Positions 12,310 through 47,795 of a DNA stretch of 48,406 bases are shown piece after piece (the stretch's first letter is position 1; each line of letters begins with the position of its first letter). The notes beneath the pieces were generated by a model. That model did no database searches. It was not told the DNA's origin and saw only the letters and a program-made list of their open reading frames with translations. A program made the position numbers and the translations under genes. Origin of the DNA: a virus. Its lineage: Duplodnaviria > Heunggongvirae > Uroviricota > Caudoviricetes. The stretch lies in IMG/VR virus record IMGVR_UViG_2531839448_000004. One strand, written 5' to 3'.

Positions 12310-12525
12310 ATGTCAAATAAAATGACTGGTTTAGTAAAATGGTTTAACGCTGATAAAGGTTTCGGCTTTATTTCTCCTGTTGATGGTAGTAAAGATGTGT
12401 TTGTGCATTTTTCTGCGATTCAGAATGATAATTATCGAACCTTATTTGAAGGTCAAAAGGTTACCTTCTCTATAGAGAGTGGTGCTAAAGGTCCTGCAGC
12501 AGCAAATGTCATCATTACTGATTAA
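12310..12525 (+). CDS. cspB: Cold-shock protein CspB
   Basis: [71 protein letters not shown]. Confidence 0.88.
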
Positions 12526-15197: not shown

Positions 15198-15410
15198 ATG
15201 TCTAACAAAATGACTGGTTTAGTGAAATGGTTTAACCCTGAAAAAGGTTTTGGTTTCATCACGCCGAAAGATGGCAGCAAAGATGTGTTTGTCCATTTCT
15301 CAGCAATTCAGAGCAACGATTTCAAAACATTAACTGAGAATCAGGAAGTTGAATTTGGTATTGAGAACGGACCTAAAGGTCCTGCCGCTGTTCATGTAGT
15401 GGCGCTTTGA
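15198..15410 (+). CDS. cspI: Cold-shock protein CspI
   Basis: [70 protein letters not shown]. Confidence 0.9.
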
Positions 15411-37031: not shown

Positions 37032-37041
37032 TGGGGTGAAT

Positions 37042-40000
37042 ATGGCAGTAAAGATTTCAGGTGTACTGAAAGACGGTGCAGGTAAACCGGTACAGAACTG
37101 CACAATCCAGCTGAAAGCAAAACGTAACAGCACCACGGTGGTGGTGAACACGCTGGCATCTGAAAATCCGGATGAAGCAGGGCGTTACAGCATGGACGTT
37201 GAGTACGGTCAGTACAGCGTTATTCTGTTGGTGGAAGGATTCCCGCCGTCACATGCCGGGACCATCACAGTGTATGAAGATTCCCGACCCGGTACGCTGA
37301 ATGATTTTCTCGGTGCCATGACGGAGGATGATGCCCGTCCGGAGGCACTGCGCCGTTTTGAGCTGATGGTGGAGGAGGTGGCGCGTAACGCGTCCGTGGT
37401 GGCACAGAACACGGCAGCCGCGAAGAAGTCAGCCAGTGATGCCAGCACATCAGCCCGTGAGGCGGCAACCCATGCGACTGATGCTGCAGGCTCAGCACGC
37501 GCAGCCAGCACGTCAGCCGGACAGGCCGCGTCGTCGGCTCAGTCAGCGTCTTCCAGCGCAGGAACGGCATCAACAAAGGCCAGTGAAGCATCGAAAAGTG
37601 CTGCTGCTGCAGAGTCCTCAAAAAGCGCGGCGGCCACCAGTGCCGGTGCGGCGAAAACGTCAGAAACGAATGCGGCAGCGTCACAACAATCAGCCGCCAC
37701 TTCTGCATCCACCGCGACCACGAAAGCGTCAGAAGCTGCCACCTCAGCCCGGGATGCGGCGGCCTCAAAAGAGGCAGCGAAATCATCAGAAACGAACGCA
37801 TCATCAAGTGCCAGTAGTGCAGCTTCCTCGGCAACGGCGGCAGGAAATTCCGCGAAGGCCGCAAAAACGTCTGAGACGAATGCAGATAACAGCGCACAGG
37901 CGGCAGCGGCCTCACAAACTGCATCGGCAAACTCCGCGACAGCAGCCAAAAAATCAGAAACCAACGCGAAAAATAGCGAGGCAGCAGCAAAGAGCAGCGA
38001 AACAAACGCTAAAGCCAGCGAAACTAATGCTAAATCCAGTGAAACAAACGCGGCGAAATCTGCGGCGGACGCACTTAATTATCGCAACCAGGCGCAAGTA
38101 ATTGTAGGCGATAATATCGGTCTTGGCTCAGCACCGCGTGATTGTCCTGATATTTCCGGCAACCCATCAGGGTATATCGGATTTATGCGCATTATGAGTA
38201 ATGCAAAAGGCTTTCCATCGATTGCATCCGGTGAAAGCAGTCTTACGGGGTTTATTAGTCAGGTAGATGGAACACCAGCGTATACAGGTGTATTTCAGGG
38301 ATGGGCTACGCGCTCGCTTTATACTTATCGCTGGAATCCGACAATAGGCCCGCAGTGGACGCGTCACGCAAGAAAAGATGAAGTGGACAGGCTTACTCAA
38401 CTAACAGGTAATACACGCGTATATTGTCAAAATGCAAGCAAATTTTTTGGTATCTACGATTCAGGAACATGGGGTTATTACGATGCAGAGAATAGCGAAT
38501 GGATTCCGCTTTCGATCGCGGCCGGAGGTACTGGTGCGGCAACTATTGATGGTGCCAGAACGAATCTTGGCTTAGGTAGGAACAACAGCCCTCAACTTAA
38601 CAGTCTATTTCTTGATAGATATAGTGATTCGACCAATACATACACATCTAGTGGAATTCTCCATACAAGACTGTTAGCAACTGACAGCACTGTGCGTCTT
38701 GGTGCTGATATGTATGTTGAGACTTTATCAAATGAGCCAGGTCAATTAACAATAAGGTTTACATACGATGGTTCAACTGGTGCTTCAAAATATCTAAACC
38801 TTAACTCAGAAGGTAATTTAATTGTAGATAGTGCGATACTGAGATCAACGGTTGAAAAACCTTTACAAATAAGGAGCGCTAACCCAGCAATAAGATTTAA
38901 TGAAACAGATCGCCCGGCTAACACGCCTACTTATACTCTCATTGCTAATGCTGGCGACTGGTTTATTCAGAAACGCGATTATGATGATGCCGGAAGCGTT
39001 AGTAACGCAATTGCATATAATTTCGCAAACGACAGAATTGATGTGCAAAATCTTAAAGCGTCTGGGTTAATTACAGCTAACTCAGGAATCGCAACATTAA
39101 CAGGTCATGACTGGAACTCTCAGCATACTGATAACGTCGACAAATTTAGACCAATCGCAGGCAGTACAAACGGCCCGGCAGGCTCTATGGTTCTTGGCGG
39201 CATTCATGTTCAATTTAGTAAAAATTATGCTGTGCAGTTCGGAGGCCGCAATTCCGGTTTTTGGGGAAGAACAATTGAAAATGGAACGACGCAGGAATGG
39301 AAGAAATTACTAACAGTAGACGATCTCAATTCATCTACCGATCTTGCTGTCAGGTCATTAACCACATCTAACCCGGTAAAATCTGGCGGAGGGCGAATTG
39401 ATGTCCTTGGAAGCACGTCAGACTATAGCAAAATGGATTGCTTTGTACGTGGGTTTGATAGCACCGGTAATTCTCTCGCGTGGGCGTTGGGTTCATCAGT
39501 CGGCGTAAGTAAGATGCTGTCGCTAAAAAATTTCTTTAGCGGAGCTGAGATACTGCTAAATGGTAATGACGGCGCGGTTCAACTCAAAACAGGTGCTGTT
39601 AACGGGGCTAAAGCGCAGGCGCTCACTATCAACAAGGATGAGGTTAACTCAACTGTTGATTTAACTCTTACAAAACAAACAGGGACTGGAAATCGTTTTG
39701 TTTTACAGAACTTAGGTAATACAGAACTATCATTTGCCGCAAAAGTATGGGGATCAAGTGATCGACAAAACGTTTTTGAGGTTGGAACGTCTGCTGCGTA
39801 TCTGTTTTATGCGCAAAAAACGTCAGCAGGCCAGTTGTTTGATGTAAATGGCGCTATTAATTGCACAACGCTGAATCAGTCATCAGACCGCGACCTTAAA
39901 GACGATATTCTCGTTATCAGCGACGCGACGAAAGCAATCCGTAAAATGAACGGATACACCTACACGCTCAAGGAAAACGGGATGCCTTATGCTGGCGTTA

Positions 40001-40317
40001 TTGCACAGGAAGTAATGGAGGCGATACCAGAAGCTGTGGGATCGTTTACTCATTATGGTGAAGAGTTGCAAGGTCCGACCGTTGACGGCAACGAGCTACG
40101 CGAAGAAACTCGCTATCTTAATGTTGACTACTCCGCCGTGACGGGTTTACTTGTTCAGGTCGCCCGTGAAACAGATGATCGCGTTACCGCGCTGGAAGAG
40201 GAAAACACAACGCTACGTCAAAATCTGGCAACAGCAGGCACCCGGATCAGCACTCTGGAAAATCAGGTAAGCGAACTGGTTGCACTTGTCCGGCAGTTAA
40301 CAGGAAGCGAACATTGA
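37042..40317 (+). CDS. Side tail fibre protein with Ala/Ser-rich repeat collar and C-terminal intramolecular-chaperone (S74-like) domain
   Basis: N-terminus MAVKISGVLKDGAGKPVQNCTIQLKAKRNSTTVV...; C-terminal ...DRDLKDDILVISDATKAIRKMNGYTYTLKENGMPYAGVIAQEV... is chaperone-domain-like. Confidence 0.85.
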   Translation: MAVKISGVLKDGAGKPVQNCTIQLKAKRNSTTVVVNTLASENPDEAGRYSMDVEYGQYSVILLVEGFPPSHAGTITVYEDSRPGTLNDFLGAMTEDDARPEALRRFELMVEEVARNASVVAQNTAAAKKSASDASTSAREAATHATDAAGSARAASTSAGQAASSAQSASSSAGTASTKASEASKSAAAAESSKSAAATSAGAAKTSETNAAASQQSAATSASTATTKASEAATSARDAAASKEAAKSSETNASSSASSAASSATAAGNSAKAAKTSETNADNSAQAAAASQTASANSATAAKKSETNAKNSEAAAKSSETNAKASETNAKSSETNAAKSAADALNYRNQAQVIVGDNIGLGSAPRDCPDISGNPSGYIGFMRIMSNAKGFPSIASGESSLTGFISQVDGTPAYTGVFQGWATRSLYTYRWNPTIGPQWTRHARKDEVDRLTQLTGNTRVYCQNASKFFGIYDSGTWGYYDAENSEWIPLSIAAGGTGAATIDGARTNLGLGRNNSPQLNSLFLDRYSDSTNTYTSSGILHTRLLATDSTVRLGADMYVETLSNEPGQLTIRFTYDGSTGASKYLNLNSEGNLIVDSAILRSTVEKPLQIRSANPAIRFNETDRPANTPTYTLIANAGDWFIQKRDYDDAGSVSNAIAYNFANDRIDVQNLKASGLITANSGIATLTGHDWNSQHTDNVDKFRPIAGSTNGPAGSMVLGGIHVQFSKNYAVQFGGRNSGFWGRTIENGTTQEWKKLLTVDDLNSSTDLAVRSLTTSNPVKSGGGRIDVLGSTSDYSKMDCFVRGFDSTGNSLAWALGSSVGVSKMLSLKNFFSGAEILLNGNDGAVQLKTGAVNGAKAQALTINKDEVNSTVDLTLTKQTGTGNRFVLQNLGNTELSFAAKVWGSSDRQNVFEVGTSAAYLFYAQKTSAGQLFDVNGAINCTTLNQSSDRDLKDDILVISDATKAIRKMNGYTYTLKENGMPYAGVIAQEVMEAIPEAVGSFTHYGEELQGPTVDGNELREETRYLNVDYSAVTGLLVQVARETDDRVTALEEENTTLRQNLATAGTRISTLENQVSELVALVRQLTGSEH
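37600..38060 (+). repeat. In-frame tandem repeats encoding reiterated A-K-(S/T)-S-E-T-N-A motifs within the tail-fibre gene
   Basis: Repeated peptide units AAKTSETNAAAS, AKSSETNASSSAS, AKTSETNADNSAQ, KKSETNAKNSEAAAKSSETNAKASETNAKSSETNAAKSA. Confidence 0.8.
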
Positions 40318-40792: not shown

Positions 40793-41881
40793 CTATTCGC
40801 TATAAGTTAATGTTGGTTTTGAAAGTCTTTTGGATATTGTTTTTCCGATATTAATGAATGGAGTTTCAATATATTTATAAATAAAGAATGATAAGAACAA
40901 GCTAAGAGCAATAATGAATGAAAACTTAGAGAACCCAGGTTTTTCATAAAGCGGAATGAAATCCTTAAAATTAATTAAAAATAGCATTACTATCGCATGG
41001 GATAAATACAGAGAGTAAGAGATATCACCTAGCTTACTGAGTATTTTATTTTCCCTTAATCCGAAGTTAACTTCATAAAGTAAAACTCCCGTAATTATGG
41101 AGGCTGCCCACAATCCGAAGTTTAAAGGGCCATGACCAAATCTGAATTGATAAAAATATGAGCAAACACCAAATGAAACCAAAAGGAATGATATCGCCTT
41201 TGCGTTTTTTATATATTTAAATTTTCTGTGTATTATATACAGAAACATCCCATAAACGAATTCTAACAGCATGGGTGATGACATTAAGTTTAGAAAGCCA
41301 ATATGCCAATGACCTGTATCACCAATCGTAAACTTACTTGATAGAGAAAGGCTGTTGGAAAATTTCAACTGTATGAGAAGTAGCGGGACTATCAATGCAA
41401 TAACTGATATTAATAATCTGTTTTTATGACTCAGCGATATTGCAAGCATAAAAATGAAATAAAAATAGACTTCAAAGGTTAATGTCCATGCTGGATAAAG
41501 CACGTTGTATCCGAAGAATGGCGCTTCTGAATAATAGTCCAGGTGAAGCAGAAACAATGAACGCAATAATTCACTTTCGGTGAAGACTGGGTTCAATAAA
41601 AAGAATAAGATTGTGCAAATGAAAAATACAGGGTAAATCCTGAAAAAACGCCTGGTCATAAAGTTAATAGGGGAATTTGTTTCTTTTTTTTGACTCGATA
41701 ACATTATTATAAATCCACTTATAATAAAAAACAGATCAACCCCAAAACCACCACTAATAAACAATAAATCACCTAGATCTTTTTGTGCGTAAACTTCATT
41801 TAGGTATTGTTTATTGTGATATGCAACAACGAGTAATGCTGCTACACCTCGCAAATAGTGAATTGATTTTACCTTCTTCAT
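40793..41881 (-). CDS. Acyltransferase-3 family membrane protein (OafA/Oac-like O-antigen acetyltransferase candidate)
   Basis: 362 aa, polytopic, markedly AT-rich; N-terminal YLRGVAALLVVAYH motif typical of acyltransferase-3 proteins. Confidence 0.75.
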   Translation of the reverse strand: MKKVKSIHYLRGVAALLVVAYHNKQYLNEVYAQKDLGDLLFISGGFGVDLFFIISGFIIMLSSQKKETNSPINFMTRRFFRIYPVFFICTILFFLLNPVFTESELLRSLFLLHLDYYSEAPFFGYNVLYPAWTLTFEVYFYFIFMLAISLSHKNRLLISVIALIVPLLLIQLKFSNSLSLSSKFTIGDTGHWHIGFLNLMSSPMLLEFVYGMFLYIIHRKFKYIKNAKAISFLLVSFGVCSYFYQFRFGHGPLNFGLWAASIITGVLLYEVNFGLRENKILSKLGDISYSLYLSHAIVMLFLINFKDFIPLYEKPGFSKFSFIIALSLFLSFFIYKYIETPFINIGKTISKRLSKPTLTYSE

Positions 41882-42319
41882 TTTTATATAATCACTGTTC
41901 CAATTTTTTTATTTTACAAACAATTCTATCTAGCTCATTAGTACTCAAAGTCAGATTGGTAGCAATAAAAAAACAAGATATGTGATGACATGGCGCGGGG
42001 CTCAGAACCACTCGTGTATTTTCGCCACTGGCTATGACTGGCTGCACCTGCAAGATCTGCCATTTGTGTGCCAGTATACCCAAGCTCTGACTTTATGTTT
42101 ACCAGATCCTCTGGAGTGCCGGGGAGTATAATCGTTGATTAATCGAATCTGCAACTATTTCAGAACGACCTAGGTTAAAGTGCGCTCTGCAGTCTCTTAT
42201 ATAAGGTGATACTTTAATTGTCTGGAAACTGGACAGGTTAGGAAGGAGCAGGAAACATCTTATTATACTTACCGAGTAGCTGCGGGTAAGGGGGGGATTT
42301 CCGTAGCCTGACAGGTAAC

Positions 42320-42594
42320 ATTGACACGTCAACATCGATGGTTTTTTTTATTTTTCCATGTGATGGAGCCCTGGTTGAAATGAAGCGTGAACTGATTGAT
42401 GACTGAACAAAAGTTGGACTGGAAGATGCTCGCGCACAGGGAGGAATTGGTGGACGTCGTCCTAAACTTACATCAGAACAATGGGCGCAGGCCGGGCGAT
42501 TAATTGCATCAAAAGTCCCGCGTCAGAAGGTGGCGATCATCTATGATATTGGTGTATCGACTTTGTATAAGAGGTTTCCAGCCAGGATTATATA
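42320..42594 (+). pseudogene. Decayed C-terminal fragment of a Pin/Hin-family serine DNA invertase
   Basis: Frames give ...GALVEMKRELIDD* then ...GGIGGRRPKLTSEQWAQAGRLIASKVPRQKVAIIYDIGVSTLYKRFPARII*, matching the invertase C-terminal HTH region, with in-frame stops and frame changes; catalytic N-terminus absent. Confidence 0.65.
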
Positions 42595-42918
42595 AAACTG
42601 CAGACACGCCGTATGCAAGACGTGCTGCGGTTGGTTGATGCACTTTCGAGAGTGTATGTATTGAATAATTTCCAACCGTCATTAATTTTATTTATTTTTT
42701 GCATGAGAGGATTTGAACCTCCGAGCCTCGACACCTTATGACAACGCGATATTCCCTTGATGACCGCTATGCGCCAAAATAACCAATTGATAAATAAGTT
42801 GATTTTAATTGGTTGGAAGCAAGTCAGGTCAAATTCAGCATGCCGCTCTCTGTATCGGGTAGTTAAATTTTTCTATAACTGATAGTAATATGTTAAAACT
42901 CACACAGATAAATTATCA

Positions 42919-44901
42919 TTGCTCAACAAGTATAATGGAGTTCCCGTGGATACAGCAGAACATGATGGCAAATTTGCTTGGGCTAGTTTTTATGAGGCTT
43001 TTGCCAACGCGTTACTGACTTGGCGAAATCGTAGAGATGAATTAGTCAAAGGTATTCATCTAATTGCCTCAGGTGTGGAAGGAATGTCCCATCTGCAGGA
43101 CAAATCTATTATGGGAGAGATCTTTCCCTTAAAAGACATTTGTCCGTTTACTACTATGGGCTTGTTCAATCGTAACTTGACCGACAGCAATCGCAAAATT
43201 ATTGCTGCCAAGCTAGCGAATTTGTTGGGCGTGAACGAACCGATTCCTGACTCCTTTGCCGGAATCCCGCTGTTGAATAACCAAAAATCTTGGTTCTTTG
43301 GTTATGAAAAGTCACGCGACCCTAATGACATTGAATGCTTGTGGGAAATGTTCTCGCAGGCAATGACCTTTGCGGATAACCAGAATACTAACTCTGCAGA
43401 CTTCACTGCCGCATATGACATCGCTTCTACAGTAATGAATGTCGGTTGGAATCTCACCATGGGGTTGTACTGGACCCGTCCTTGGTTCTACCCTACTTTA
43501 GATAGCCAGTCGCAGTATTACATTCAGACAGTGTTAAACATTAAGATCATTAAAAACGGGGCAAAAGGTCGCTGTAGTGGACAAAGTTACCTGAGTCTTA
43601 TGCGGGCGCTGAACGAGGTCTTTACCCAACCAAACTATCCGGTTCATTCTTTCCCAGAACTTTCTTTATCAGCGTGGAATACAGATCTTAGCCAGTCTAA
43701 AGATGAGGTGGCAAATAGAACGTGGAAAGCCTCTTTACTGAATAAAATTAAGGCGTTATGCCTGAAAAAAAATGGCCCTTATTTCACTGCTTCGGAGTTG
43801 GAAGAAAACTACTTGGACGTATTCAAGGTAGAGCATCCTGAGAGCAAAACAGTTACAAGCTCAATCTACTTTTATCTACAGAAACTATGCAATGATGATG
43901 AGTTAAAGTCCCTTGAGTCCGGAAATTATGAATACCTGAATTTTGAGAAAAACGAATCCCAGACGATAACTGAGGAAACTGTCGAAGAGAGTGCGCCGTT
44001 GCCAAAACTCACTCACGTTCCTTATGACATCAGTCATCTGGTGCAGGATGGCTGTTTCTTGGAAGAGGCTAAGATCCAACTCACACTTCAGCGCCTGATC
44101 GACAAGAAAAACCTGATATTACAAGGACCACCCGGAACTGGAAAAACCTGGTTAGCGCGACGTCTGGCGTACTGCTTGATGGGAGAAAAAGCACCTGAGC
44201 GTATTAGCGCGGTGCAATTTCACCCGAACCTCTCTTACGAAGACTTTATTCGCGGCTGGCGTCCAGGTAAAGAAGGGCAATTGACGCTAATTGATGGACC
44301 TTTTGTAAATGCAATCAAAACTGCAGTCAATAATCCTACCTCGAAATATGTGGTGATAATTGAAGAGATTAATCGTGGCAATCCGGCGCAAATCTTCGGT
44401 GAAACACTCACGTTGATGGAAGCAGATAAACGCACGCCGACTGAGGCATTATCTCTTTCCTATCCTAAAAATGATGATGAAAAAATATACATTCCTGAGA
44501 ATCTATATATCATCGGTACGATGAATATTGCAGACCGCTCACTCGCACTACTTGACCTAGCGCTGCGCCGTCGTTTCGCGTTTATCGATCTAAAGCCAGC
44601 TTTTAATGACGCGTGGAGAAACTGGGTAAATTATAATTACGCAATTGATTTTGACATGTTAGCATTCATCAAATCTCGACTGACGGTACTTAACGATATG
44701 CTGGCAAAAGATGTTACCTTAGGACCACAGTTTTGTATCGGTCACAGCTATGTCACCCCAGCTATCGGCCAAAAAATCAACGATGCCCAGGCTTGGTATG
44801 AACAAGTCGTTGATACAGAGATCTGCCCTTTGCTCGCCGAATATTGGTTCGATGCTCCAAATAAAGTCGATGAAGCCAGAAAAGTGTTATTAGCAAAATG
44901 A
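42919..44901 (+). CDS. McrB-like AAA+ GTPase with a long (~400 aa) N-terminal region of unrecognised type; start codon uncertain (TTG 42919 or GTG 42946)
   Basis: C-terminal motifs LILQGPPGTGKTW, VVIIEEINRGNPAQIFGETLTLMEADKR, YIIGTMNIADRSLALLDLALRRRFAF match the McrB GTPase family; ATGA overlap with the downstream McrC-like gene. Confidence 0.75.
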   Translation: MLNKYNGVPVDTAEHDGKFAWASFYEAFANALLTWRNRRDELVKGIHLIASGVEGMSHLQDKSIMGEIFPLKDICPFTTMGLFNRNLTDSNRKIIAAKLANLLGVNEPIPDSFAGIPLLNNQKSWFFGYEKSRDPNDIECLWEMFSQAMTFADNQNTNSADFTAAYDIASTVMNVGWNLTMGLYWTRPWFYPTLDSQSQYYIQTVLNIKIIKNGAKGRCSGQSYLSLMRALNEVFTQPNYPVHSFPELSLSAWNTDLSQSKDEVANRTWKASLLNKIKALCLKKNGPYFTASELEENYLDVFKVEHPESKTVTSSIYFYLQKLCNDDELKSLESGNYEYLNFEKNESQTITEETVEESAPLPKLTHVPYDISHLVQDGCFLEEAKIQLTLQRLIDKKNLILQGPPGTGKTWLARRLAYCLMGEKAPERISAVQFHPNLSYEDFIRGWRPGKEGQLTLIDGPFVNAIKTAVNNPTSKYVVIIEEINRGNPAQIFGETLTLMEADKRTPTEALSLSYPKNDDEKIYIPENLYIIGTMNIADRSLALLDLALRRRFAFIDLKPAFNDAWRNWVNYNYAIDFDMLAFIKSRLTVLNDMLAKDVTLGPQFCIGHSYVTPAIGQKINDAQAWYEQVVDTEICPLLAEYWFDAPNKVDEARKVLLAK

Positions 44902-46018
44902 CGACAATAACCGGGAGTGAGCAACATACAGCATCACGTATTCCCATGCGAAATATCTGGATGCTGATGCTGTACGCTTCAGATCTGTTTCGTCAGTTAG
45001 GGCGCAATCAGATCGCAGTAGAAGATAACCCAGCAGAAATCCCCGACCTGGTGGCGACAATCCTCCTTCATGAGATTACGCTGCGCCGACGTCGCAATTT
45101 AAATATGGGATACCAAACTTGTCATGCGGCCCTGAACCGGGTGAGAGGGCGCATTGACATACTGTATACTGCCAGTCATCAACTACTGGAACGGGGACAG
45201 GTTGCCTGCCATTTTCAAGACATAACCCTCAACACCCCCCGAAATCGCTATGTTCGCTGTGCGTTAGAACGTCTGGCCTCAATCATAGTGAAACCGTCTT
45301 TGGCGGCAGATTGCCATTTTATGGCAATATCACTTCGCCGTGAGGGGATAAATGGAGGATATCCTGCCCCCACGAATTACCCTCAGTGTGGCGTTTTGGA
45401 CGCCATGATGCCGCAGATAAACCGATGGTCGATGCCGCACGATTAGCTTTTGAACTGCTGATGCCGACCGAAGATCAAGGCCAATATCTTTTACCTGCGC
45501 CCTCAAATAACCTTTACTGGATGAGAAGACTATTTGAAAAAGGTATCGCTGGCTTATATCGTGTACACCTTGCCAAAACAACTTGGCAGGTCTCTGCAGG
45601 GAAAGAGCTGAAATGGGCGTTGAGCGATCAAAGTGCAGGTAGTGCAGAGATTTTCCCGACAATGAAGTCAGACATTATTCTGGAACACAAGACTGCCCAG
45701 CGGCGTATTATTATCGATACCAAATTTAATTCGATTCTGACAAAGGGTTGGCATCGGGAGCAATCACTACGTAATGGCTATATTTATCAGCTATATACCT
45801 ACCTTAGAACACAGGAGAACAAGACGGATCCGCTTTCGCTCAATGCCGCTGGTCTTCTACTTCATCCAGCTGTTGGCTATATGCTTAATGAGTATGTTGT
45901 CACTCAGGGACATAAGATCCATTTTGCTACAGTAGATATGACGGTAGATGCTAAAGCAATTAAAAAACAATTGCTGGCAATAGCCCATGATTGTGCAGGA
46001 GTCGCGGTTGATGACTAA
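44898..46018 (+). CDS. McrC-like nuclease subunit, split into two frames (44898-45446 and from about 45344 to 46018)
   Basis: N-terminus ...IPMRNIWMLMLYAS... (McrC: IPVRNIYYMLTYAW); second frame carries the D-x-K nuclease core RIIIDTKF and YIYQLYTYL (McrC: ILIVDAKYY, NLYQLMNYL). Confidence 0.6.
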
Positions 46019-46715
46019 CCATCCTATAAGGCACTGGCTGTAATATAATCAATAGTTTCAATTAAGTAGCTGTTATCCGTGCTTAGTCATCATATGACGC
46101 ACCACGGTCTAATTTTCCTGCTCATACATTGATATATCCTTGTCGAGCCCGGAAAGTCGCAGTCCACTATTAGGTATACCGATTGCCAGCACCAAAAGCT
46201 TCTTTGTAATTATTATATCGGGGAATGCCTATTTTTTAGTGACAATATCAGATAGCAATTAATAAGCGGTGCCGGTAATGGATGTTATGTTTAATGTATA
46301 GATACAGTCATCATAAACTAAACGTCTGTTGTTCGCTCATAACCGACATTTATCTCAGTTATGGAAGATAATTATGTATGCAGATAATGGGGCAGACAGT
46401 CGTGGAGTAAACAAGGTTTTGCACTGATTGGCGGCATCGTTATCTTATTTTTAATTATGTGCCTCTTAACATAAGTTGGGACAAAACAGAGACACATAAG
46501 GTCTCACAAAGGTCTGCAAGGCCTCACATGTATTGAGGTGTTAATAAAATGTAGACTTGTAATTTGGATATAAATGGTAGAGAAAACCTTTCCCCAAAAT
46601 AAAAACGAACGTCAATGAAATCAAACGGTTGAATAAAGTTGATTTTGGCTAATAAAAAACAATAAAATATTTTTATGATTAAATATCAATGACTTGAACT
46701 TAATGTTTTTATATA

Positions 46716-46880
46716 CTGTTACGCCATATGGGTTGGACTGAAGCGGCTGACCTGATTGTTAAAGGTATGGAAGGCGCAATCAATGCCAAGACCGTAACCT
46801 ATGACTTCGAACGTCTGATGGAAGGCGCTAAATTGCTGAAATGTTCAGAGTTTGGTGACGCGATCATCAAGAATATGTAA
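46716..46880 (+). pseudogene. icdC: 3' fragment of isocitrate dehydrogenase gene icd (prophage attR duplication)
   Basis: Translation [54 protein letters not shown] matches the Icd C-terminus; no upstream icd sequence. Confidence 0.8.
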
Positions 46881-46903
46881 TCTCTCCATGTGTTAAATAT
46901 TGA

Positions 46904-46935
46904 AACGGGCGTATAACACGCCCGTTGTTTTATTT
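46904..46935 (+). terminator. icd-type intrinsic terminator
   Basis: AACGGGCGTataacACGCCCGTTgttttattt. Confidence 0.7.
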
Positions 46936-47744: not shown

Positions 47745-47795
47745 CATGTGCGTTAAGTATTGAAACGGGCGTATGGCACACCCGTTGTTTTTATA
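47745..47795 (+). repeat. Second copy of the icd 3'-end/terminator sequence
   Basis: catgtgcgttaagtattgaaacgggcgtatggcacacccgttgttttta closely parallels 46888-46933 (catgtgttaaatattgaaacgggcgtataacacgcccgttgtttta). Confidence 0.7.

Follow-up and report, generated by a model that had tools for sequence, protein, structure and literature searches.

A putative type IV restriction module of the McrBC family, with a DUF8425 and winged-helix N-terminus, in the e14 mcrA slot of an Escherichia coli prophage

McrBC systems are classed by the N-terminal domain that reads their DNA target, which is 5-methylcytosine (5mC) for the DUF3578 domain of EcoK McrBC, N6-methyladenine (m6A) for the YTH domain of the Thermococcus system, and a specific sequence for LlaJI and LlaI. 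The gene pair described here is found in a 48,406-nt stretch of caudovirus DNA (IMG/VR record IMGVR_UViG_2531839448_000004; this entire stretch is called the window), where an mcrB-like gene (42946-44901) and an mcrC-like gene (44898-46018) adjoin each other on the plus strand of an E. coli prophage; it probably represents an McrBC-family module of type IV restriction, carried by the prophage and made up of two genes, that combines a winged-helix and DUF8425 reader, a GTPase motor and an McrC nuclease. A comparable architecture, in which an N-terminal domain (NTD) of unknown function and a winged helix (wH) precede an NTPase that is paired with an McrC-like protein, was reported by Helbrecht et al. 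(2024), whose single purification attempt failed (PMC11037411). The winged helix of DpnI is a proven reader of m6A-DNA (PMC3424567, PMC11037411); within its recognition helix, E228, K229, R231, Q232 and Q235 make up the pocket that takes both m6A methyl groups, and they read GATC (PMC3424567). In the END nucleases, hypermodified phage DNA is sensed by a catalytically inactive EndoIII/Ogg-like domain (iEndoIII), and fusions of the same sensor to McrB-like GTPases were also reported (Yee et al., 2025; PMC12191111). Finally, divergent helix-hairpin-helix (HhH) superfamily glycosylases, recognizable by structure only, act as stand-alone anti-phage defences (2025 preprint, bioRxiv 10.1101/2025.10.29.685425).

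The pair resembles EcoKMcrBC in its layout, two overlapping genes with the mcrB homolog upstream, and in its motor. The C-terminal ~280 residues of the mcrB-like product matched the EcoKMcrB structure (PDB 6hz4) at E 4e-77, Pfam AAA_5 at E 3.5e-27 and the NCBIfam McrB model NF008457 at E 7.6e-79; the NF008457 match covered model positions 176-452 only, and its score of 265.5 bits compares with an equivalog cut-off of 637. The BLASTP alignment with K-12 McrB was likewise confined to residues 371-650, which were 47% identical to K-12 residues 178-457. An initial annotation of this DNA had pointed to McrB-type GTPase motifs at the C-terminus, and the Walker A, Walker B, NxxD and RRRF signatures were all recovered (Table 1); on these motifs, the predicted product is an AAA+ GTPase of the McrBC family that includes the arginine fingers. 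The Walker B acidic pair is EE in the window protein and DE in EcoKMcrB. The likelier start codon is the GTG at 42946: a GGAG precedes it at a spacing of 5 nt, and PGAP chose this start in identical genomes. A perfect TATAAT lies at 42929-42934, about 12 nt 5' of this GTG and just before the GGAG Shine-Dalgarno sequence; a promoter and terminator scan of 42100-46800 gave counts no higher than shuffled controls and was uninformative.

The downstream gene proved to be McrC-like and to overlap its neighbor, as the initial annotation had it: the mcrC ATG sits on the mcrB stop codon within an ATGA at 44898-44901, and the two genes are translationally coupled through these 4 nt. The mcrC-like gene is split across two frames in the window. 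Both fragments matched Pfam PF10117 and the NCBIfam McrC model NF007277 (E 2e-40 and 1.5e-61, at model positions 4-141 and 154-350), with scores of 138.8 and 208.5 bits that together exceed the model cut-off of 338; the gene thus has the parts of an McrC, a predicted McrB-binding region at the N-terminus and a nuclease core at the C-terminus. The repaired protein was 24% identical to EcoKMcrC over 352 residues (BLASTP), and the D...DxK core of the PD-(D/E)xK nuclease, another element of the earlier description, was aligned between the two.

At the N-terminus the two systems part ways. The DUF3578/ADAM domain of EcoKMcrB, which flips 5mC and spans 161 residues, is absent from the window protein, and 368 residues of DUF8425 and DpnI-like winged helix are found instead. 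In the Pfam scan no MrcB_N/DUF3578 domain was found in the mcrB-like product, and its N-terminal ~370 residues gave neither a BLASTP alignment to EcoKMcrB nor a match in the Pfam, NCBIfam or PADLOC libraries. A canonical mcrBC, that is, a 5mC-specific EcoKMcrB equivalog, was rejected for want of any similarity between the N-terminus and EcoKMcrB residues 1-161; the initial annotation had likewise been unable to assign this region to the EcoKMcrB 5mC-binding domain. Since the N-terminal region is not the canonical 5mC reader, it is likely, judging from the sequence, that the target specificity differs from that of EcoKMcrB.

That region had been left unplaced in the initial annotation, which no longer holds; profile and structure work assigns it. 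A homolog search with residues 1-370 returned 305 proteins whose precomputed Pfam domains are PF28527 (DUF8425) and PF28529 (McrB_lid), some of them with an additional PF17726 (DpnI_C) or PF14338 (Mrr_N). The AlphaFold2 model of residues 1-369 (predicted local distance difference test, pLDDT, 85.4) shows a helical domain (1-248), a long helix and a winged helix that extend to residue ~335, and a disordered acidic linker; across the family, the segment corresponding to this linker varies in length. The N-terminal 368 residues consist of DUF8425 (1-248) and a DpnI_C-type winged helix (about 250-335). By description, the window protein matches the group of Helbrecht et al., since its DpnI-type winged helix follows an N-terminal domain and precedes an McrB-like NTPase, and since it has an McrC partner; it differs in that its winged helix lacks the 6mA/GATC motif by which candidates were chosen in that paper (PMC11037411). 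The architecture is an uncharacterised variant of McrBC, already noted in the literature and never characterised; no mention of DUF8425 or of the module's RefSeq accessions was found in the literature.

The winged helix is a divergent member of its family. When excised, the window segment scored 15.9 bits against the DpnI_C profile (PF17726), below the cut-off of 23 bits; orthologs at 84% and 67% identity scored 26.7 and 31.4 bits, and distant relatives 47-53 bits. The recognition helix is rich in aromatic residues, and the DpnI contact positions are occupied by S, S, Y, F and Q (E228S, K229S, R231Y, Q232F; Q235 kept). E. coli methylates its own GATC sites (Dam+). Because four of the five contacts are changed and the host modifies its own GATC, Dam-site specificity is not expected; a reader of Gm6ATC by DpnI analogy was excluded on these two grounds, and in a Dam+ host it would be self-toxic. 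In R.DpnI (PDB 4esj/4kyw), moreover, the winged helix is fused to a PD-(D/E)xK domain, whereas here it is fused to a GTPase.

The fold of DUF8425 suggests, in a preliminary way, a relationship to DNA glycosylases. The model of this domain alone (pLDDT 93.5; predicted template modelling score 0.92) had Ogg, OGG1 and Deinococcus radiodurans EndoIII as its closest structural neighbors, with weak matches, and seven more HhH-GPD glycosylases were among the top 49 neighbors (CacOgg, AfAlkA, MIG, Mag1, MagIII, DrAlkA and MutY); with the longer model, Foldseek returned OGG1, SsOgg and MutY at E 0.5-1.3. In the model, a helix (150-160) and a hairpin are followed by a second helix (169-177), a Pro-rich loop, and Asp186, which caps the N-terminus of helix 187-196. 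At the level of motifs, this order of elements fits the HhH-GPD signature, in which a conserved Asp comes ~20 residues after a GhG hairpin. An alignment of 163 domains yielded the hairpin consensus G-V-[G/K]-W-[N/K]-L-T with a D or E 17 residues further on, at a helix N-terminus; position 186 is Asp in 141 domains and Glu in 10, and position 169 is Asn in most. From motif and secondary-structure register, Asp186 may correspond to the catalytic Asp of EndoIII and OGG1, and position 169 to their catalytic Lys. An HhH-GPD-like fold for DUF8425 is likely but unproven, with a chance that seems slightly better than even. The END nucleases may offer a parallel: their published sensor is a divergent EndoIII/Ogg-like domain (PMC12191111), and the closest structural neighbors of DUF8425 are likewise Ogg, OGG1 and D. 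radiodurans EndoIII. The differences lie in the effector, which in END nucleases is a PLD nuclease within the same polypeptide, and in the sensor, which in END nucleases lacks the catalytic residues and is detected by HHpred as PF21790 or EndoIII (PMC12191111); DUF8425 has no sequence-level match of the PF21790/EndoIII kind and has retained Asp where the catalytic residue may lie. Fusions of PLD and DUF8425 on the END pattern were sought among ten short DUF8425 proteins, none of which had a PLD; they carried HARE-HTH, DpnI_C or a truncated AAA_5 instead.

The locus is one member of a widespread class and not a one-off. With a limit of E<=1e-3, a phmmer search of 1.84 billion cluster representatives (clusters at 50% identity) returned 1954 DUF8425 proteins, of which 1350 passed E<=1e-10, and an McrB AAA_5 was fused to DUF8425 in 48 of 55 sampled long members. 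Distant full-length relatives retained 53% identity over DUF8425 and 61% over the GTPase. The domain that accompanies DUF8425 varies. It is a DpnI_C winged helix in the clade of the Enterobacterales and in a small number of other members; elsewhere it is Mrr_N, tandem HARE-HTH or an N-terminal domain of ~150 residues. DpnI_C, Mrr_N and HARE-HTH are readers of DNA or modified DNA that appear to be interchangeable beside DUF8425, in favor of a modification-reading module; in many members, DUF8425 is present without any other accessory reader recognizable in Pfam. Most DUF8425-McrB proteins outside the Enterobacterales have no winged helix and carry the ~150-residue domain in its stead (P0028, P0038, P0045, P0065). 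This domain (motif WFVG...GIWE...GD.IAIKS) had no Pfam match and may be another reader domain; in proteins of this type an acidic linker of only 22 residues leads to the GTPase. Some members have two or three tandem copies of DUF8425 (P0121, P0122, P0123, P0134 and others); P0122, for example, is 1368 aa long and has three matched stretches.

Orthologous pairs in Enterobacter hormaechei and Pectobacterium brasiliense form two-gene islands amid housekeeping genes; these modules (L008, L009) share the 4-nt mcrB/mcrC overlap, and their McrC proteins have 377-382 aa. No DNA methyltransferase adjoins the module in the window, in L008 and L009, or in the metagenome contig L004, and the system fits a modification-dependent type rather than classical restriction-modification for this reason. 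Mrr-type (type IV) genes adjoin some relatives. In another metagenome contig (L005, 4700-9098), a gene with the domain order HARE-HTH-HARE-HTH-Mrr_cat is located directly 5' of a DUF8425-McrB/McrC pair, forming a small type IV cluster. On L004 (2833-5740) the genes are split into DUF8425-wH (375 aa), AAA_5 plus McrB_lid (237 aa) and McrC (302 aa), followed by a Mu-type transposase and IstB; reader and motor can therefore be separate polypeptides.

The module occupies the slot where prophage e14 of K-12 carries mcrA, as the initial annotation had proposed. In a blastn comparison of the window with K-12 positions 1204000-1214000, homology ended at the 3' end of pinE (window 42607) and was back at window 46714, with 96% identity; from there onward the window corresponds to the right end of e14, with icdC and then iraM. 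According to the K-12 annotation, mcrA lies in the segment between, and the cassette of the window is an exact positional replacement of the mcrA segment. EcoKMcrA and the present module share this slot, from the pin 3' end to the icd' attR, and both would represent type IV restriction functions among prophage accessory genes; the proteins are unrelated, McrA being a single-chain HNH nuclease with an NEco reader of 5mC and 5-hydroxymethylcytosine. EcoKMcrBC, in contrast to the window module in its prophage at icd, is located in the immigration control region beside hsd. A survey of 5426 complete E. coli genomes found the module, at an identity of at least 99%, in 305 of them and on the chromosome in every case; neither the module nor its N-terminal DUF8425 domain had a match among 50,697 phage genome records.

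In the proposed mechanism, the winged helix would dock in the DNA major groove, and DUF8425, with a glycosylase-like HhH-GPD fold, would probably interrogate or flip a non-canonical base; the acidic linker would tether this reader module to a hexameric GTPase motor of the EcoK kind. The McrC-like partner would, as in the homologous EcoKMcrBC, bind the GTPase ring, stimulate GTP hydrolysis and cut the DNA via its PD-(D/E)xK site. The sequence itself establishes the domains, their intact motifs, the gene overlap, the place in the prophage and the rare frameshift; we infer the dependence on DNA modification and the role of DUF8425 and, by homology to EcoKMcrBC, the modes of assembly and cleavage. 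The likely targets would be incoming DNA of phages or plasmids that bears a modification foreign to E. coli; this leaves out Dam (Gm6ATC) and Dcm sites, whose marks are the host's own. A defence of this modification-dependent kind, to the benefit of the lysogen, agrees with the lack of a linked methyltransferase, the type IV neighbors of some relatives and the presence of the pair in place of mcrA. A more specific version is tentative, and the chances run somewhat against it: DUF8425, present in ~2000 McrB-like clusters and in 5% of complete E. coli genomes, could be a derived HhH-GPD base-flipping module that lets McrBC read hypermodified or non-canonical bases, could constitute with the winged helix a major type IV specificity class that was never characterised, and might even keep a glycosylase chemistry that couples base excision to GTP-driven cleavage.

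Several observations weigh against a modification-reading module with DUF8425 as its sensor. The GVG hairpin occurs in only about a third of DUF8425 members; the DUF8425 profile found nothing at E<=10 among PDB sequences (hmmsearch); when 30 members were scanned against Pfam at E<=10, only sporadic DUF6932 came up, and no match to HhH-GPD, HHH or an OGG-like family; and hhalign of DUF8425 against E. coli Nth returned a probability of 0.4% (a homolog search seeded with Nth yielded only sequences at least 86% identical and was useless for a deeper profile). To these are added the retention of only one in five DpnI m6A/GATC contact residues in the winged helix, the failed purification of one complex of the NTD-wH-NTPase kind by Helbrecht et al. 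(PMC11037411), the frameshift in the window copy, and the conservation of DUF8425 itself, which is close to that of the motor (53% vs. 61%) and atypical for a specificity domain. Such conservation could indicate a structural or regulatory role. On that account DUF8425 would serve structure, oligomerisation or regulation, for example autoinhibition or the docking of phage inhibitors or triggers, and only the accessory domain (in the window protein, the winged helix) would determine specificity; a constant domain conserved nearly like the GTPase, next to a neighbor that changes between DpnI_C winged helix, Mrr_N, HARE-HTH and the ~150-aa N-terminal domain, is what it leads one to expect, and the weak structural match to glycosylases agrees with it. 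It is nevertheless unlikely, given that many members have no accessory reader recognizable in Pfam besides DUF8425, and that an EndoIII-like sensor fused to McrB-like GTPases has precedent (PMC12191111). Still less probable is an active, monofunctional HhH-GPD-type DNA glycosylase that excises the modified base, with McrB/McrC recruited to or acting at the abasic site, or with both activities in parallel. The Asp or Glu that 151 of 163 domains keep where the catalytic Asp would be, an enzyme-like identity of 53% across phyla, and the existence of stand-alone divergent HhH glycosylases that defend against phage (bioRxiv 10.1101/2025.10.29.685425) speak for such an activity; the position equivalent to the catalytic Lys can be read in its favor for the 31 of 163 domains that have Lys, with Asn in most. 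These positions are, however, mapped from motif and secondary-structure register only, Asp186 may merely cap its helix, no sequence-level similarity to any glycosylase was found, and the EndoIII-like domain of END nucleases, the one analog studied, is an inactive sensor (PMC12191111).

The module in the window could also be a dead remnant, the pseudogenised passenger of a decaying prophage, and this is a serious possibility, if a little short of even. Its mcrC is frameshifted, as the initial annotation had noticed: the gene is broken into two open reading frames (ORFs; 44898-45446 and 45386-46018) by a run of five C at 45367-45371 where reference genomes have six. The adjoining pin gene is a remnant, the window begins at its left end with a fragment of an insertion sequence (IS), and in some genomes with the module the surrounding prophage is heavily degraded. 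Yet the lesion is a single homopolymer base, and such single-base lesions are the commonest kind of assembly error. Over 3.5 kb this run is the one difference between the window and NZ_CP027140, mcrB and the rest of mcrC being otherwise 100.0% identical to the intact alleles, and one C added to the run restores a 373-aa ORF identical to the reference protein. A 36-mer with the in-frame C6 was found in 260 complete E. coli genomes; the 35-mer centered on C5 was found in one of 5426 (strain 1943, with a different upstream context). The frameshift is private to the window sequence and one other genome, and the module is intact in the family at large. With C6 essentially fixed (260 vs. 1), phase variation of the run is unsupported. 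Either a genuine inactivation of recent date or a faulty assembly may underlie the C5 lesion; unless the missing base reflects a sequencing error in the homopolymer, the present copy is predicted to be inactive, and any phenotype of the window copy hinges on whether the C5 run is real.

The restriction module favored here is of wider relevance on account of its distribution: a reader class to which no target is assigned is represented by 1954 clusters (50% identity), by 305 of the 5426 complete E. coli genomes, and by the stand-alone two-gene islands in Enterobacter and Pectobacterium. If DUF8425 is indeed an HhH-type base sensor, the END nucleases and the defence glycosylases would be linked to the McrBC motor, and hypermodified phages would be predicted to be restricted, with consequences for phage therapy and for the barriers that natural E. 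coli strains pose to cloning and transformation. Experiments could start easily from the E. coli allele, which is native, takes up only 3.1 kb and is located in a well-known prophage slot.

Table 1. Features of the mcrBC-like cassette, in window coordinates.
Feature	Position	Strand	Remarks
Cassette	42608..46713	.	4.1 kb, GC 42.5%; between pin remnant (42204-42607) and attR/icd' junction (46714 onward)
mcrB-like gene	42946..44901	+	651 aa from GTG 42946; ORF open from TTG 42919; DUF8425, DpnI-like winged helix and McrB GTPase
DUF8425 domain (PF28527)	42946..43689	+	Residues 1-248, mostly helical
Candidate HhH hairpin NVGWNLT	43438-43458	+	Residues 165-171
Conserved Asp186 within PTLDSQ	43492-43509	+	In DUF8425
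DpnI_C-type winged-helix domain	43693..43950	+	Residues ~250-335; three helices and three strands in AlphaFold2 model
Recognition helix SSIYFYLQKL	43858-43887	+	Within winged helix
Acidic linker	43951..44049	+	Low confidence; winged helix to GTPase; pLDDT <50 at model residues 348-359
McrB-type AAA+ GTPase (AAA_5 plus McrB_lid)	44050..44880	+	Pfam, NCBIfam and PDB matches, BLASTP, motifs
Walker A GPPGTGKT	44125-44148	+	Motif scan
Walker B IIEEINR	44356-44376	+	Motif scan
NxxD signature (NIAD, within MNIADRS)	44521-44541	+	Motif scan
RRRF arginine fingers	44566-44577	+	Motif scan
mcrC-like gene	44898..46018	+	Frameshifted; ORF fragments 44898-45446 and 45386-46018; repaired product 373 aa
C5 homopolymer, frameshift site	45367..45371	+	C6 in reference genomes
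Predicted PD-(D/E)xK nuclease core of McrC (MKSDII ... RRIIIDTKF)	45662..45727	+	D...DTK aligned to EcoK D244 and D257-x-K259

The surroundings of the cassette add to the initial annotation, which had placed the pair between a tail-fibre/pin remnant and attR. The pin-type invertase remnant (42204-42607) was correctly placed; it is 76% identical to the 3' part of K-12 pinE, and the annotation of identical genomes has it as a partial recombinase with a frameshift. An acyltransferase family gene (40793-41881, minus strand, GC about 33%), encoding a multi-pass membrane protein of 362 aa, also lies between the tail fibre gene and this remnant; it looks like lysogenic-conversion cargo of the O-antigen acetylation type. 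The entire upstream context that includes the acyltransferase gene is common to only 32 complete genomes. No attL was found within the window; positions 1-921 hold the 3' part of an IS3-family (rve-type) transposase ORF and neither icd nor attL, and the left boundary of the prophage therefore lies outside the window or is interrupted by the IS.

The tail fibre ORF (37036-40317) encodes 1093 aa, with Ala/Ser/Thr-rich low-complexity repeats at residues ~120-340 and a C-terminal S74-peptidase-type chaperone region that is annotated in identical genomes. Further to the left, within a prophage stretch of 33-44% GC, a direct repeat of 200 nt with 73% identity occurs at 12310-12509 and 15198-15397, at a spacing of 2.9 kb. 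At the right end, iraM is flanked by two copies of a 43-nt repeat (46889-46931 and 47749-47791), in which a GC-rich hairpin with a T tail resembles a terminator; both copies are also present in K-12.

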